In this document: positions 13,429-20,394 of the stretch, piece by piece
Position numbering within the stretch: position 1 is the stretch's first letter
Layout: every line of letters starts with the position of its first letter
Notes under the pieces: generated by a model
What the model saw: only the letters and a program-made list of their open reading frames with translations
Databases searched by the model: none
Told to the model about the DNA's origin: nothing
Program-made: the position numbers and the translations under genes
DNA from: a bacterium
GTDB lineage: Bacteria > Cyanobacteriota > Vampirovibrionia > Gastranaerophilales > JBAXKC01
Direction of reading: 5' to 3'
NCBI GenBank assembly: GCA_037137535.1
Contig: JBAXKC010000005.1
Location: 32,001 to 96,000, forward strand
Length of the DNA stretch: 64,000 bases

Positions 13429-16158
13429 ATGGTTAACATTAATCGAAATCTCACATTTACAAATGCAGACTTGATTAAAAAACAGTTTCAGATGAAGCCG
13501 TCTAATCAGCAAGCTCAACCTGCTCCTGTGGTTGAAAATAGTCCGCAAAAAGCTAATCAGGAATTGATTGCAGATACATTAAAATTAAGAAACGTTGAGC
13601 CTGACAAACCAAAAGGTAAAACATTTAACAGAGGTCTTCTTCAGTGGCCACAAGAAATATATGAAACCAACGTTAAAGGTGCAAAAGTTCTTTGGAAAGC
13701 TATGGCTAAAGGCGAAGGCAACGATAAAGATATCGGAAGCCTTAACGATTTAGCGTTAGGTTTGGGCAGTTTAGGTATTGCTGCTGCTTTAGCACTTAGA
13801 CCTAAGGCTTCCCCTGCCGAAAGAGCTATGGAATTTGCCGGTTTTGGAACATGGTTTGCAGCGCAAGCTATTTGGCCAAAAACTATTCTCGCAGGACCTG
13901 TTAAATTTTTTACCGGTGTAGATATTAATAAAACTTATCAGCATAGTGAAGGCAAAATTAATAGAACGCTTACTGATCCTCAATATATTCCTTGGGATCA
14001 CTATACTCAAAAAGAATATGATGAAGTTGGTAAAAAATGTCATATTCCTGAAAATATCAAAGATAGAAATAAACATGTTCAAAATAAAATCAGACAGGTT
14101 GGCGTTCAGTCAAATACTTTATGGATGCTGACAGCAGGTTTTTCAACTCCGTTAATTTCCAGTTTATTTGCTGATAGATTAAGACCGGCTGTTGCAGGTG
14201 GTCTTGAGATGGTAAATGAAACAAAAAATTCTATGAAGTTATTCGGATTCAAGAAAACACTTCACGATAGAATTGATAGAGCTCTTCAAAATCTTGAACA
14301 TAAGATGATTCCTAACGCTACAGGTAACGGATTAGGTTCTGTGGGTAGAGGTGTTCAAAACTTCTTCATTAGTGCTGATAATATGTTAGGAACTATTAAA
14401 AAGCCTATTTTATCCACAGTTCAACATCTTGTCGGCTATAAGCCTGAAGAAGCATTAAAAGGTTTTGATTCTAAAGCTGAATCTATTTCTAAGAAAACTG
14501 CTGAGCAAATGGAAAAATTACTTGAGTCTAATCCTAATAAAGAGAAAATGACAAGTGAATTAGCAAATATGTTTAAAGATTCTAGTGAATTAGGTTCATT
14601 TAGACATACTGACTTATTTAACAGTATTGTTAAAACTGTATCTTCTAAAATGGATGAAATTCCTGGAAAAGATGCGACTAAACAAGCAGAGCTTAAAAAA
14701 CAAATCGTTAGTGTTGTTTCATCGGCTAAGAAATTTGTTGAGATGGCAAAAGATGTTGAAGGCTATGCTAAAACAACACTCGGTAATTACGCTGATACAA
14801 CTATAGCTCACGCTTGGGATCAAGCTCCTAGAGAAATGATGGATGCTTTAAGACTTCCTAATGCTGTAAGAGTTAAATTACAAAGTGTTAACGGTCAAAC
14901 TCCTAATGGTATAAGTGCAGTTGCTCTTGAAATTTCTGATTATATTCATAAACTTCCTGCTGCTGAAAGAGAAGAAGTTAAAATTGCATTAGATAATGTT
15001 ATTCATAAGCACGATAGTAAGTTATCAGGAATGGCTGAGAGAGTAGGTGTTGTCTTTACTGAAGGAGGAGCTAAAGAGACTGAAAATGGTGTAATGCAAA
15101 AATTAAGAGCATACTCTAAAGACCTTAGCACTCAACTTTATGATAGTGATGATTTTAAAACAGCAAATATTTATATGGATAATCTGAGTAATATGGTCAG
15201 AGATCGTATTATGAATACAAAAAATTCCTTCCATAAAATGCCTGTGTTATTTGAAGCTCATACAAAAGAAGTTGAATTAATTGCTGAGTATAATAAAAAG
15301 AATCCGACTAAAGCTATTGATCTTAAAAATGGCGTGACTAATATAGTAATGGAATTGTCAAGTAAACCTAAGGAAGCACTTAACGATCATGAAAAAACAT
15401 TACTTGAGGGTCTAACTAAATCAATGAAGTTTAAGAGTACTTTTGATCCGCATAACTTAATGACAGTTGACAAAGGTGTAAGTTTAGATGAATTCTTAAA
15501 TAAATGCAGAGCGATTTATGGAAGTAATCCTGCAACAGAAGCTAAAGGCACTATAAATGAGATGTTAAATCAATTATTTGTGTCAATGTATAAAATTGAG
15601 GATACAGGTAAGGATCTCAGTAAATGGACAGAGGCAGCTCTTACTGATTTATTAAAAGGTGATAATCAATTAGCAAAACAATTAAAATCTGCAAGTGGTG
15701 ATGACCTTAAACATATGCTTGAGGCTAATGATCACCAGTTAGAAAAAACGATTAATTCTCATTTGGGTGAATTATTTAATCAAGCTAAGTCAACAATGAC
15801 AGAAAAAGGTTTAATATCACTTACTGAAGATTCAATTAAAGCTATATTTAATGAAACCTTTAATAAAGCGGGTATTGATGTTTCTCATTCGTTAAAAACA
15901 CAAGCATTTATTGAAGAAAAAGCTGATGCTCTTGCTCCAAAACTTAAATCAGCTGGAGCTTGGTTAGGTAAAGCTCTTGATAAATTTATCGCAGATGCAG
16001 CAGGTGAGACTGTACTTTACAGAGGTTGGTTGACAAAAGTCGGTAGTGCATTCGCTGTTCTTACAGGTGTAACATTAATCGCTTCATCAATGATGGGCAA
16101 GAAAAACAAATATAATCCGGGTGTCTATGAGGTAAGGGAGACCAAGAAATATGAATAA
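13429..16158 (+). CDS. Large hypothetical membrane protein with long helical middle, paralogue of 12098-13411
   Basis: 909 aa; RBS AGGGG; hydrophobic segments near aa 105-160, 230-248 and 870-890. Confidence 0.85.
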   Translation: MVNINRNLTFTNADLIKKQFQMKPSNQQAQPAPVVENSPQKANQELIADTLKLRNVEPDKPKGKTFNRGLLQWPQEIYETNVKGAKVLWKAMAKGEGNDKDIGSLNDLALGLGSLGIAAALALRPKASPAERAMEFAGFGTWFAAQAIWPKTILAGPVKFFTGVDINKTYQHSEGKINRTLTDPQYIPWDHYTQKEYDEVGKKCHIPENIKDRNKHVQNKIRQVGVQSNTLWMLTAGFSTPLISSLFADRLRPAVAGGLEMVNETKNSMKLFGFKKTLHDRIDRALQNLEHKMIPNATGNGLGSVGRGVQNFFISADNMLGTIKKPILSTVQHLVGYKPEEALKGFDSKAESISKKTAEQMEKLLESNPNKEKMTSELANMFKDSSELGSFRHTDLFNSIVKTVSSKMDEIPGKDATKQAELKKQIVSVVSSAKKFVEMAKDVEGYAKTTLGNYADTTIAHAWDQAPREMMDALRLPNAVRVKLQSVNGQTPNGISAVALEISDYIHKLPAAEREEVKIALDNVIHKHDSKLSGMAERVGVVFTEGGAKETENGVMQKLRAYSKDLSTQLYDSDDFKTANIYMDNLSNMVRDRIMNTKNSFHKMPVLFEAHTKEVELIAEYNKKNPTKAIDLKNGVTNIVMELSSKPKEALNDHEKTLLEGLTKSMKFKSTFDPHNLMTVDKGVSLDEFLNKCRAIYGSNPATEAKGTINEMLNQLFVSMYKIEDTGKDLSKWTEAALTDLLKGDNQLAKQLKSASGDDLKHMLEANDHQLEKTINSHLGELFNQAKSTMTEKGLISLTEDSIKAIFNETFNKAGIDVSHSLKTQAFIEEKADALAPKLKSAGAWLGKALDKFIADAAGETVLYRGWLTKVGSAFAVLTGVTLIASSMMGKKNKYNPGVYEVRETKKYE

Positions 16159-18118
16159 CGTTCAAAATAACAATAATCAGTTTATTGTAAAACTTCCTTT
16201 GAATAAAACTAATCAGCCGTTACCTCAACAGCCTGTGTATGTTGCTCCTGCGGCTACACATGTGAATCAGCAGCCAAATCAGGTAGTTTATGCAAATAAT
16301 ATTCCTAATATTTTCTTTAAATCACCACAACCTCAAAAAGCTGTTGTTGCTCCACAAGTAGCTCCACAGCAACAAGCTAATACTCAATCAATGTCGTCAG
16401 ATTGGGTTTCAAGTTGGATAAAAGTTAAAATGCCTGCAGCGGCTAATGCTTCAACAGCAGTAGCAAAGGCTGCTCCGGTTCAGAAAATATCTGATGTGAA
16501 ACTTGATCCGAATTTTCATTGGAAAAACGACCTTAGGCAGTTATTCCACGAAAATAAAGCTTGTATTATGGCAGTGTTAATGAATACATTCAATGCTAAA
16601 GATAAAGATGGTGACAGATTAATTCAACCGTCTAAAGGTGAAGAATTCGGCACTTGGTATAATGGTATCGAGCGTCTTGATGAGATGAAAGCATTAGGTA
16701 TTAATACATTACACATTCTTCCTCCAAACCCACCCGGTGCAAAAGGTGCTATGGGGAACAACGGTTCAAGATATGCTGTTGATGATTATACTAAATTAGA
16801 TCCAATGCTTGATGATCCAAAATGTCCTCTTGGCGTGGAAGATGAAGCAAAATTATTCATTCAGGAAGCTCATAAACGTGGTATCAGAGTAATGTTTGAC
16901 CTTGCAAGCTGTTTCTCAATCGATCAGTTTGAAAAATCTGCTGCTAATCAAGATAAAAATCCTGCAACTCCAAAAGTAGCTGTAAATCCTGACGGTACAC
17001 CGGCTATTCCTCAAGGTTGGGAAGACATTAGAATGATGGATCCTTGGGAAGATAAAGATAAGAGAATTTTACACAAAGGCTTGATGGATTATCATAAAAA
17101 ATTCATTGATTTGGCACAAAGAATTGGTGTTGATGGTATCAGAGCTGACGTTGCAAGAGCGAAACCTGTTGAATTCTGGAATGAATTAATTGCATATTCC
17201 AGAAGTAAAGATCCAAACTTCTGCTGGTTAGCTGAAAGCTATTGTTATGAAGATGCCTCACCAATGCAAAACGTACCTGCTGATAGACCTGAAGAGCTGT
17301 TAAAAGTTGGTTTCGATTCATACTATGGTCAAGATCACTTATTCCCATTATGGAAAAACAGTAAAGATTTCCATGACAATATGCTTCTAAACCTTGATCT
17401 TTCACATAAAGTAGGGCCTAATAAGTCTGTAATCGGTTCAATGCATACCCATGATGATAGAAGTCCTATGTCAAACGGTGGCGCTCCATACTGTTGTTTA
17501 ACAGCAGGCGCTCAACTTACATTACCGATGACTAATCCATACTTTACAATCGGTTTTGAATCAGGTGACAGATATTTATATCCATACGATGGCAAGCCTG
17601 TTCAAGGTTGGGCAAGAACAGACTCTAAAACCTATGTAACTCATAGTGAGTTTATCGACATCTTTAATACGTCAGATAAACCGCATGGCGATAATCCTGA
17701 AATCGGCCAATATATGACTGATATGACAAAAGTTAGAAAGCAATATGAAGATGTTATTACCAAAGGTTCTTACATTCCGTTAAAAACTACTAATAAAGAA
17801 GATTTAATTATCGGTTATGCAAGACACTATAACGGTAAAACCTTACTTGCTATTGCTAACAAAGATGTAAATGCTGTTCAGCAAGGAAAAGTGAAAGTAC
17901 CAACTTTAAAAGAAGGACAAGTTCTTAAAGATCTTTCACCTGCTTATGGTGCACCAAGTAATTATGTCGCTAAAAACGGAGAAGTTGACGTAGAACTTGG
18001 ACCAGCTAGATTCCATCTTTTTGAAATTGATACACCTGAAATAGAAAAAGCTGCTGATGGCGTATATTCTCAAAACCTTGATTTATCTATGTATGAACAA
18101 ACTCCAATAAAAGATTAA
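16151..18118 (+). CDS. GH13 alpha-amylase-family glycoside hydrolase with about 115-aa low-complexity N-terminus
   Basis: LGINTLHILP, EAHKRGIRVMFD, GVDGIRADVA (nucleophile), WLAESY (acid/base), MHTHDD; overlaps upstream stop. Confidence 0.9.
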   Translation: MNNVQNNNNQFIVKLPLNKTNQPLPQQPVYVAPAATHVNQQPNQVVYANNIPNIFFKSPQPQKAVVAPQVAPQQQANTQSMSSDWVSSWIKVKMPAAANASTAVAKAAPVQKISDVKLDPNFHWKNDLRQLFHENKACIMAVLMNTFNAKDKDGDRLIQPSKGEEFGTWYNGIERLDEMKALGINTLHILPPNPPGAKGAMGNNGSRYAVDDYTKLDPMLDDPKCPLGVEDEAKLFIQEAHKRGIRVMFDLASCFSIDQFEKSAANQDKNPATPKVAVNPDGTPAIPQGWEDIRMMDPWEDKDKRILHKGLMDYHKKFIDLAQRIGVDGIRADVARAKPVEFWNELIAYSRSKDPNFCWLAESYCYEDASPMQNVPADRPEELLKVGFDSYYGQDHLFPLWKNSKDFHDNMLLNLDLSHKVGPNKSVIGSMHTHDDRSPMSNGGAPYCCLTAGAQLTLPMTNPYFTIGFESGDRYLYPYDGKPVQGWARTDSKTYVTHSEFIDIFNTSDKPHGDNPEIGQYMTDMTKVRKQYEDVITKGSYIPLKTTNKEDLIIGYARHYNGKTLLAIANKDVNAVQQGKVKVPTLKEGQVLKDLSPAYGAPSNYVAKNGEVDVELGPARFHLFEIDTPEIEKAADGVYSQNLDLSMYEQTPIKD

Positions 18119-18144
18119 TCTAGTAAAATAACTAAATTAATTAT

Positions 18145-18182
18145 AAAAATCCCTTACATTATTTAAGATGTAAGGGATTTTA
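18145..18182. terminator. Bidirectional intrinsic terminator
   Basis: AAAAATCCCTTACAT...ATGTAAGGGATTTT. Confidence 0.85.
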
Positions 18183-18354
18183 GCTATAAAGACGGGCATT
18201 TAAACCCTAATGCCAGCTTGCCGTTTTATGACAAAGTCCGACTAGAATAAAAACGCCCTATATTTAATAACCCTGCATAAGGTAATTCCATAAAAAAGAT
18301 AAATCGCAACAGTATCGTAACATTGACTTCACGTCTTGTATTAACTTATCTTTT
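18145..18354 (-). ncRNA. Candidate structured non-coding RNA (family unassigned; 6S-like rod possible)
   Basis: Nested helices on the minus strand with about 8 G-U pairs that would be A-C mismatches on plus; ends at a terminator. Confidence 0.5.
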
Positions 18355-18448
18355 CTTATCCTTTATAAATATATCATTATGTTATATAAACAACATCGGT
18401 TGTTCGTTCTACAACAATTGTCTATAATTACAAATATATTACCATAAT

Positions 18449-18464
18449 ATTGTTGTACAACAAT
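18449..18464. promoter_or_regulatory. Perfect 16-bp palindrome, possible operator
   Basis: ATTGTTGTACAACAAT; partial repeat TACAACAATTG at about 18410-18420. Confidence 0.4.
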
Positions 18465-18471
18465 TGGCTTA

Positions 18472-20394
18472 TTATGTTAATTTAGCTATTTTTTCCGCTA
18501 GCTGAGCAATTTCCTCACAGTTATCAGCAGAAACATTTATAAGTTTAGTTATTTCAGTCATTTCTTTACCAGCTTCATTCATGTTAGTTTCAAGTTTGTC
18601 TGAAATTTTATTCATTAACTCTACTTGCTTCTGAATTATGGATTCACTAGATTTAGTTGAATCTACAACTTCTTTAGATTGTTCAGAAAGTTTTCTTACT
18701 TCATCCGCTACAATTGCAAAGCCACGTCCATGATCACCCGCACGAGCTGCTTCAATAGAAGCATTAAGTGAGAGTAAATTTGTCATACCTGCTATATTTA
18801 CAATTTCTTTTGATGCTTCAATAAATTCATTAACGCTTTGTTCAACACTATAAATACTATTTTTTAAATCACTTGAGGTTTTAATAAGATTAATTATTTG
18901 TTCTTTTATTTGTTCCGTATTTGCACTATTTTCTTTATTTGAATTAGCGACATTTAATACTTTTTCTATAATCTTATCCACATTTGTTTTAAGAATAGTT
19001 GATGATTCCTCTTTTTCTGCATTAATTTCCTGTAATTCTGCTGTCATTTGTTGTAGTTTACAATTTTGTGCATTTATCATGTCATGTTCTATTTTAAGCT
19101 CTTTTTTATTATAAAATATGCAGTTTTTTAAATGATTAGTATTATTAAATATAGAAAGGGCCATATTTTTACAATTGCCATATCCGCAAGCATTACAGTT
19201 TATGTTTTTATCTTTTTCAGTATATTTATGCAGTTTTATAAATACTTCATTCAATTCGCTTTGATTTGGAATTAATATTTTTACATCAGAAGATTTATTT
19301 TTGTATTTTCTAATAAAATCATTCAAGTCTATTTCTTTGTTAAACATATCAAATAAAGGATAGGTATTTTTATTAAATATATTCTTTGAGCTTTTTTCTT
19401 TGATTTTTTGTTTTTTTGCTAAATTCATTTTATTATCAAGATCATCTATGTGACGATCTTTACATGTCCCTGTCCCCAAATTGCAGCCGAAAGAACAGTT
19501 TAAAATATCTACAATAAGAGGCAAATTTTTATTTTCTTTTACTCTTTTATTATATGAATCAAGGTAACTATATGCATGCTCATTACCTTCTACCTGTCTT
19601 ACCCAGGCATCAGGTATATGGAATTCTACGTTTTCTCTAAGACCACCTGGTCTTGAGAAGGTTAAGCCTAATCCACATCCGATATCATCAAAGTCTGTTT
19701 CTTCATAGCTATTTAGGTTTATATTATTTCTTTTTAAATAATTCTCTATTTTTTTATAGGTAATATTATATGAAATATAACCATTAGTATTGGGATCATT
19801 AAATTCATCTGTTTTTCCAAGACAAGGTGATAAAAAGGCTATGTTATCATTTATTTTTTTATAATTTTTCATGTAAATAGCAGTACAGAGAGCAGGACTA
19901 TGAACAGGTGAGGTTTTTTCGATTAATTCAGGTTTGTATTTTTCTATATAATTAACAATTGCAGGACAAGGCTGTGCAATGACAGAGTCTAAATTTTTAG
20001 TAGTAATCGCTTTGATATAAGCCCATGTACATAGATCAGCACCAAATGACACATCATATATTAAATTTATACCTTTGCTTTTAAAAAATGAAAAAAGTTT
20101 TTTGTAATTGTCAAAATTCAACCTTGCTGCAGGAGCTGCAACAATGGATAATTTTTTACCTTTTTTTAAATCTTCAAAAAATAATTCTGTATCATCATTA
20201 TATCTACGAGCATTATGATCACATTCCTCTATACAATGTCCACAATTTATACATTTATAAGGATCAACTTTAATTTTATTATCGTTGTTTTCGTCTAAAT
20301 AGGCTATATTGGCGTATATTGCAGGACAACCATTTATGCATTTATTGCAACCGACACAATTCTCTTCAATTGTGTAAACAATATTATTCTTCAT
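18472..20394 (-). CDS. Soluble chemoreceptor: 2x[4Fe-4S] + [FeFe]-hydrogenase-like domain + FeS + MCP signalling domain
   Basis: [93 protein letters not shown]. Confidence 0.9.

Follow-up and report, generated by a model that had tools for sequence, protein, structure and literature searches.

The spacer between two convergent genes in a 64-kb stretch of Gastranaerophilales DNA (hereafter the window, taken at its full length) carries on its minus strand what is very probably a divergent member of an undescribed Gastranaerophilales structured RNA family. It is likely that the element is a stand-alone minus-strand small non-coding RNA gene operating by the mechanism proposed below, and that it is a real and independently transcribed RNA gene can, as a separate claim, be put slightly more firmly. 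An earlier note on this DNA had proposed a stand-alone or 3'-UTR-derived minus-strand RNA as opposed to a riboswitch, and this proposal was supported by strand-specific folding, by covariation in relatives, by a G-U bias, by the lack of any Rfam match and by the lack of a same-strand gene downstream. The features of the locus are as follows, with coordinates being those of the window.

16151-18118, plus strand: gene with an alpha-amylase domain, the convergent neighbor of the minus-strand element
18119-18471: spacer containing the element, lying between the convergent genes 16151-18118 (plus) and 18472-20394 (minus)
18141-18181 (hairpin 18181-18146), both strands: perfect 14-bp hairpin AAAAUCCCUUACAU/AUGUAAGGGAUUUU, flanked by runs of A and U
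18194-18258, minus strand: hairpin H2 (the rod of the earlier note), with outer stem GGGCGUUU/AAAUGCCC, then AUUCU-AG.../...AGGGU and an enlarged apical part
18259-18269, minus strand: AU-rich single-stranded linker UAUUAAAUAUA, with a family consensus of about WAUWAUAUAG (from alignments and column counts)
18270-18283, minus strand: hairpin H1, ACCUU-AUGC-AGGGU, the small hairpin of the family (consensus ACCYU...RGGRU)
18293-18355, minus strand: 5' domain, in which a 13-bp stem GAAAAGAUAAGUU/GAUUUAUCUUUUU closes off a small inner hairpin
18368-18396, minus strand: promoter-like box ATGTTGTTTATATAACATAATGATATATT, conserved in relatives, consisting of a -35-like ATGTTG (18396-18391), a 17-nt spacer, an extended -10 TG (18376-18375) and a -10 TATATT (18373-18368)
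18404-18463, minus strand: long imperfect hairpin of TTGTTGTA/ACAACAA repeats in the minimum free energy structure, abutting the stop codon of 18472-20394
18472-20394, minus strand: gene with 4Fe-4S, Fe-only-hydrogenase large-subunit ([FeFe]-hydrogenase-like) and MCP signaling domains

The hydrogenase-like gene is on the same strand as the element and directly upstream of it. The claim of the earlier note that no gene lies downstream on the minus strand was found to be correct, as no ORF of at least 40 aa occurs there before the convergent plus-strand gene. The long hairpin at 18404-18463 may represent the terminator of the hydrogenase-like gene, or an operator. It is followed by no clear U run (read 18463-18404), it includes a perfect 14-bp palindrome TTGTTGTACAACAA, and it was not seen in the loci of relatives. 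Further along the plus strand, a 909-aa ORF at 13429-16158 had no Pfam match at an E value of 0.001 or better. Assembled contigs from three freshwater metatranscriptome runs of a single study, with libraries that were not of the small-RNA type, cover positions 17900-18051 of the alpha-amylase-domain gene and none cover 18062-18700. These contigs have zero differences to the gene across 17900-18051, which indicates that the organism or a very near relative was present in that freshwater sample, with DNA carry-over into the RNA library being a possible source of the contigs.

The helices that had been drawn for the minus strand all pair where they were placed: GGUUAU/AUAGCU (6/6 pairs, 2 of them G-U), GGGCGUUU/AAAUGCCC (8/8, 1 G-U), AUUCUAGU/AUUAGGGU (8/8, 3 G-U) and AAAAGAUAAGUU/GAUUUAUCUUUU (12/12, 2 G-U). 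The GACGUGAAGUC hairpin is likewise present, and the approximately eight G-U pairs that had been counted are located in the rod and its outer helix. The outermost helix, GGUUAU/AUAGCU, does exist but has a pair probability of only 0.45 and is rivaled by the hairpin ACCUU/AGGGU at 18283-18270 (0.44), which is H1 and is the more likely arrangement of the two because it is conserved by homology in relatives. Alternative folds had also been suggested and appear to be incidental in the ensemble; the stretch GGCAUU..AAUGCC at 18214-18195 is there, but as a competing hairpin it has a pair probability of approximately zero.

Folding was compared with shuffled controls on both strands, as the earlier note had advised, and a real excess specific to the minus strand was obtained. 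The whole spacer (18119-18471) folds at -94.6 kcal/mol on the minus strand (z -5.96, with 0/100 shuffles as good) and at -64.4 kcal/mol on the plus strand (z -2.98). With the symmetric terminator removed (18361-18190), the z values are -3.54 for the minus and +0.93 for the plus strand, and for the rod alone (18258-18194), whose pair probability is approximately 1.0, they are -5.16 and -0.36, respectively. The 5' domain (18355-18293) has pair probabilities of 0.84-1.0 and z values of -2.99 (minus) and -0.92 (plus). Its sequence is not conserved in relatives, several of which have a different 5' hairpin and some of which have none, and by this comparison of sequences the domain can be considered lineage-specific.

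A DNA search of 60 genomes of the same order returned a single short block, which in the window spans 18397-18363 of the minus strand (sequence ATGTTGTTTATATAAnATAATGATATATT) and which occurs once per genome. The box within it is 84-97% identical over 29-38 nt in seven relatives (L002-L008) and 80% identical over 45 nt in an eighth (L013), all of the relatives compared being from families other than the window's own. The matches in other families have E values from 3.5e-7 to 3.7e-4 and always lie upstream of the RNA in the same orientation. The window has the pattern ATG-N20-TATATT upstream of the element in this orientation, with a best identity of 97% (E 3.5e-7), and the more general ATG-N20-TAnnnT occurs upstream in 21 of 23 family members, against an expectation of 0.11 per 225 nt. 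In the window's own genome (G000) the box is unique, even with up to 6 mismatches allowed. Its extended -10 reads TGaTATATT, and the TG of the -10 is held at a fixed distance in 13 of the 14 box-bearing members. The -35 is poor, with 2/6 matches to TTGACA by eye; because of this weakness the box was not flagged in a scan for consensus promoters. On the basis of its sequence we infer the box to be an extended -10 promoter, and promoter geometry alone would put the transcription start (G) at the seventh nucleotide after the -10, position 18361 on the minus strand. The stand-alone reading is favored because this conserved promoter-like box lies approximately 7 nt upstream of the first structured domain. 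Two other identities for the box were discarded. With the Fur-box consensus, approximately 2,050 genomic sites match when up to 6 mismatches are allowed, none of them in the promoter. A mini-ORF (ATG TTG TTT ATA TAA) would have a purine run ending only 2-3 nt before its ATG, and its stop codon is lost in L005.

At the other end of the element, the hairpin at 18181-18146 is a probable bidirectional intrinsic terminator, serving both the RNA and the convergent gene 16151-18118; against Rfam it gave only weak matches of the hairpin-plus-U type. The predicted transcript would thus run on the minus strand from approximately 18361 to approximately 18141-18145, a length of about 217 nt.

Downstream of the box and in the same orientation, relatives share a common module comprised of H1 (ACCYU...RGGRU), an AU-rich linker, the long hairpin H2 and usually a U run. 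The H2 of the family has a 3x2 internal loop with the strands 5' CUAGCU and 3' UAWAAG. A covariance model (R1) was built from seven relatives with the window left out, and its top match in the 64-kb window was 18287-18185 on the minus strand (26.9 bits, E 2.9e-4), a low score beside the 36.6-97 bits of the other members. With a later model (R2), in which the window was included, the window element scores 40.7 bits. The element is single-copy in its own genome. The large model scans used stricter filters, under which divergent copies may be missed, and the R1 scan of the whole genome with these filters did not report the window element.

The box and 3' module were found, as one copy per genome, in 21 of 151 genomes of the order (150 sampled plus that of the window), representing 7 of 10 families. 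Carriers by family (numbered here f2 to f10) are the window's own genome, f2 (1/1), f4 (3/3), f5 (9/12), f6 (3/3), f7 (1/1) and f9 (3/5, with every carrier in genus g18 and none in genus g9). Families f8 (0/5) and f10 (0/3) yielded no copy of the RNA. Family f3 has no real member among 117 sampled genomes, as the R1 matches (4/117) and the R2 match (1/4) there are all plain terminators; the weak model matches L044, L047-L049 and L208 of this family, together with L209, are hairpin-plus-U structures without the loop strands. No member was found in 118 genomes from other orders of the class, where two weak matches (L200, L201) are also plain terminators, and a phylum sample of 150 genomes (50 of f3 and 100 of other families) gave no match. 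Among 80 metagenome loci fetched, there were four carriers, one identical to a genome copy. A box-pattern scan of whole collections returned mostly chance matches, with 26/30 genome contigs and 76/80 metagenome loci lacking the RNA, and a close relative of the window variant was not present among these genome contigs and metagenomes. One record titled as an uncultured Gammaproteobacteria MAG (L074) has a box and RNA of Gastranaerophilales type scoring 80.5 bits, the same as the G025 copy, and its taxonomic label is probably wrong.

The covariation for which the earlier note had advised a homolog search is present in these relatives, which are conserved and covarying within Gastranaerophilales. 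When 8 sequences were aligned with MAFFT blind to structure, H2 was predicted by RNAalifold and double changes occurred at 14 of 18 pairs. In 21 model-aligned sequences, 94.4% of 428 cells are paired and 19/21 pairs have compensatory changes, in an alignment fitted to the structure of the model, which favors that structure; values as high were reached in 0/500 shuffles, and pairing in slid controls is 37-53%. An 18-sequence alignment gave the same picture. For H1, 87.7% of cells are paired across the 21 sequences. G-U cells number 56 and A-C cells 6, an excess that identifies the RNA strand as the one downstream of the box, and the given strand pairs at 94.4% compared to 82.7% for its opposite. 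While the stems vary, the loop strands are conserved at 86-100% (5' strand, 18-20 of 21 sequences; 3' strand, 19-20 of 20-21). A small ORF across H2 was considered and rejected, as it is not conserved and the compensatory changes argue for RNA.

The window copy retains the box, H1 and the linker, as well as the outer H2 stem and, within the 5' loop strand, CUAG. H1 aligns with model positions 6-16, and ACCUU-AUGC-AGGGU followed by UAUUAAAUAUA is aligned ahead of H2 at a posterior of approximately 1; H1 is lacking in some true members (L038, L041). The 5' loop strand reads CUAGUC for CUAGCU, with CUAG kept, and we count it as the family strand. The 3' strand is CAUUAG where the family has UAWAAG, so that the internal loop of the window closes to A-U, G-U and U-A in nearly continuous pairing, and the apical part of H2 is enlarged. 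Judged by sequence, the H2 of the window is homologous to the long hairpin of the family with its 5' CUAGCU loop strand. It lacks a U run directly after H2, being followed instead by GUCUUUAUAGCU and then by the separate 14-bp terminator. A second hairpin after H2 also occurs in L035, where H2 has a U run, and in L037, where it has none.

Synteny was also informative. A same-strand CAAX/Rce1-like protease gene precedes the RNA in f2, f9 and part of f5, and in f5, f7 and f9 H2 lies directly against the stop codon of a convergent ~150-aa gene. The order of protease gene, RNA and convergent gene is conserved in L031-L042 and L204-L207. In the ~150-aa protein, which matches no Pfam family, the N-terminus is hydrophobic and the C-terminal tail acidic. 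Orthologs of these flanking genes are located elsewhere in the window's genome without the RNA, and no relic copies were found beside them in G000, which suggests that the promoter-plus-RNA unit moved as a whole; such movement fits an independent gene.

The best explanation of these observations would be as follows. Transcription would be initiated near 18361 from a sigma-70-type, extended -10 promoter (18396-18368) and would stop at the 14-bp terminator (18181-18146). The resulting RNA of ~217 nt would have four parts, namely a lineage-specific 5' hairpin domain, H1, the AU-rich linker and H2. H1, linker and H2, together with the promoter, are orthologous to the single-copy structured RNA found in 7/10 sampled Gastranaerophilales families. 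H2 would be a binding module for a protein or another partner, doubling as terminator in most members, and the AU-rich linker and variable 5' region may contact RNA targets, with the RNA acting in trans. A binding module is preferred for H2 because its helices covary while the loop strands CUAGCU and UAWAAG stay 86-100% constant, and constant loop strands within covarying stems suggest, from the alignment, the pattern expected of a specific recognition surface. Given an RNA gene, recognition of a protein or ligand through H2 is a tentative assignment, and the role of a base-pairing regulator is offered just as tentatively. The more particular idea, in which the CUAGCU/UAWAAG loop would be the site for a dedicated protein or ligand and the genome-unique promoter, which is unusually well conserved, would be under a dedicated regulator, is somewhat more doubtful than either.

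Of the other readings, the one that survives best is that the element is the 3'-UTR of the hydrogenase-like gene 18472-20394, or an RNA processed from it, made by read-through. This agrees with the same-strand position of the element immediately downstream of that gene, with the lack of a clear U run after the hairpin (18463-18404) that follows the stop codon, with the weak -35 of the box and with the same-strand protease gene that the RNA also follows in f2, f5 and f9. However, the upstream gene varies by lineage while the box-plus-RNA unit stays together, the -10 has its TG at a fixed distance in 13/14 box-bearing members, and in L038 and L041 the RNA starts only ~15-20 nt before H2. We therefore regard a 3'-UTR origin as unlikely.

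A little less probable again is that the element acts only in cis within the spacer, as a bidirectional terminator or an insulator that separates convergent genes, and has no function in trans. The family does resemble bidirectional terminators in that H2 with its U run directly following ends the RNA in most members, and H2 abuts the stop codon of the convergent ~150-aa gene in f5, f7 and f9; in the window, 18181-18146 serves both strands. Plain terminators are, in addition, found among the weak matches of the model. Terminator hairpins, however, are normally not alignable between families. Here, unlike in ordinary bidirectional terminators, conservation of the loop strands stands at 86-100%, the promoter box is kept across families as well, and the G-U bias fixes one strand. 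In the window, moreover, a separate perfect terminator sets H2 apart from the convergent gene. Termination there thus does not require H2, and the retention of H2 in spite of this redundancy makes a pure terminator or insulator role unlikely.

It is very improbable that the RNA is a CsrA-sequestering decoy of the CsrB/RsmZ type. RsmY, RsmZ and CsrB, which are thought to act by protein binding, are similarly hairpin-rich and terminator-ended, CsrA is encoded in the window's genome and in every RNA-bearing family, and AAGGAU occurs in both H1 and H2 of many members. Unlike those RNAs, the family has no conserved GGA loops and no enrichment of GGA, which was observed 60 times in the 21 RNAs against 50.1 +/- 4.9 in shuffles (one member having none) and 4 times in the window against 3.1 expected. 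The GGA sites sit in stems and covary away to AGAAU or AGGGU. CsrA also occurs where the RNA was not found (f8 3/5, f10 2/3, f3 20/117), and with this wider distribution and the lack of GGA enrichment a decoy was rejected as the main reading.

A 6S-like RNA, for which only the rod-like appearance speaks, can be given practically no weight. It would share with 6S RNA (RF00013) a long, largely double-stranded form and a housekeeping-style single-copy gene, but RF00013 has no match in 18050-18550 at the gathering score or at E values up to 10, and the family consists of hairpins and a terminator with no central bubble. The 6S-like closing stem and bubble raised in the earlier note found no support and were rejected because the genome's 6S RNA is encoded elsewhere, at G000:C25:12893-13074, where it scores above the Rfam cut-off.

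The comparison to known RNA classes was extended to the whole window, which had no match to Rfam 15 at gathering scores. The Rfam search that the earlier note had called for returned no family for the element, even at E values up to 10, beyond hairpin-plus-U noise over the terminator, and there was no match in the loci of relatives. A bacterial small SRP RNA (RF00169) has no match in the region, with the SRP RNA of this genome located at C16:16750-16848, where its 61.6 bits exceed the Rfam cut-off. A riboswitch or cis-regulatory leader was rejected, having no Rfam match and a downstream gene that is convergent in the window and in most relatives. An Hfq-dependent sRNA and a bacterial Y RNA were also set aside, as neither Hfq (PF17209) nor Ro60/TROVE (PF05731) was found in G000, a genome that is 100% complete, and a Y RNA had no Rfam match. 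K-turn and sarcin-ricin signatures, compared by eye with the consensus sequences, do not fit the H2 loop. The 5' arm of H1 pairs well with the 3' loop of H2 in L006 and L007 but not in L003 and L013, and this pairing was judged to be coincidental.

The Gastranaerophilales are non-photosynthetic relatives of cyanobacteria, and Vampirovibrionia/Melainabacteria are, to our knowledge, known almost only from metagenome-assembled genomes. In the portions of the literature reached by full-text search, no regulatory RNA has been described from Vampirovibrionia, Melainabacteria or Gastranaerophilales. The text available of a 2026 paper on RNA structures in 202 cyanobacterial genomes has zero occurrences of either clade name (PMC12873609). 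We class the RNA as a new family, of the stand-alone bacterial sRNA kind, of which the window carries a divergent member. A covarying single-copy RNA with a conserved promoter provides a handle on gene regulation in an uncultured clade, and the family is a candidate for an Rfam entry. As the RNA is confined to families with larger genomes and is apparently absent from f3 (0/117), it is suggested that it was lost with genome reduction. If recognition through the H2 loop holds true, the family would provide a first example of a ribonucleoprotein or regulatory RNA that is both order-wide and specific to non-photosynthetic relatives of cyanobacteria, and the lineage of the window would be a natural variant with a remodeled binding loop.

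Among motifs of known structure, the H2 strands CCUAGCU/UAUAAGG are superficially similar, although not identical, to the 11-nt receptor of GNRA tetraloops (CCUAAG/UAUGG); this is a lead only. Members in f6 cap H2 with GNRA loops and those in f5 have 7-nt loops. As a whole, the family is most comparable to stand-alone sRNA genes such as the cyanobacterial Yfr1, IsaR1 and PsrR1. Like these it is intergenic, single-copy and ~70-220 nt in length, with a promoter, hairpins, an AU-rich single strand, a terminator hairpin with a U run and no conserved coding potential. It differs from them in that no Rfam 15 family resembles it by sequence or by model, in its non-photosynthetic, uncultured host clade, and in that its most conserved part is an internal loop within the terminal hairpin as opposed to an exposed seed.
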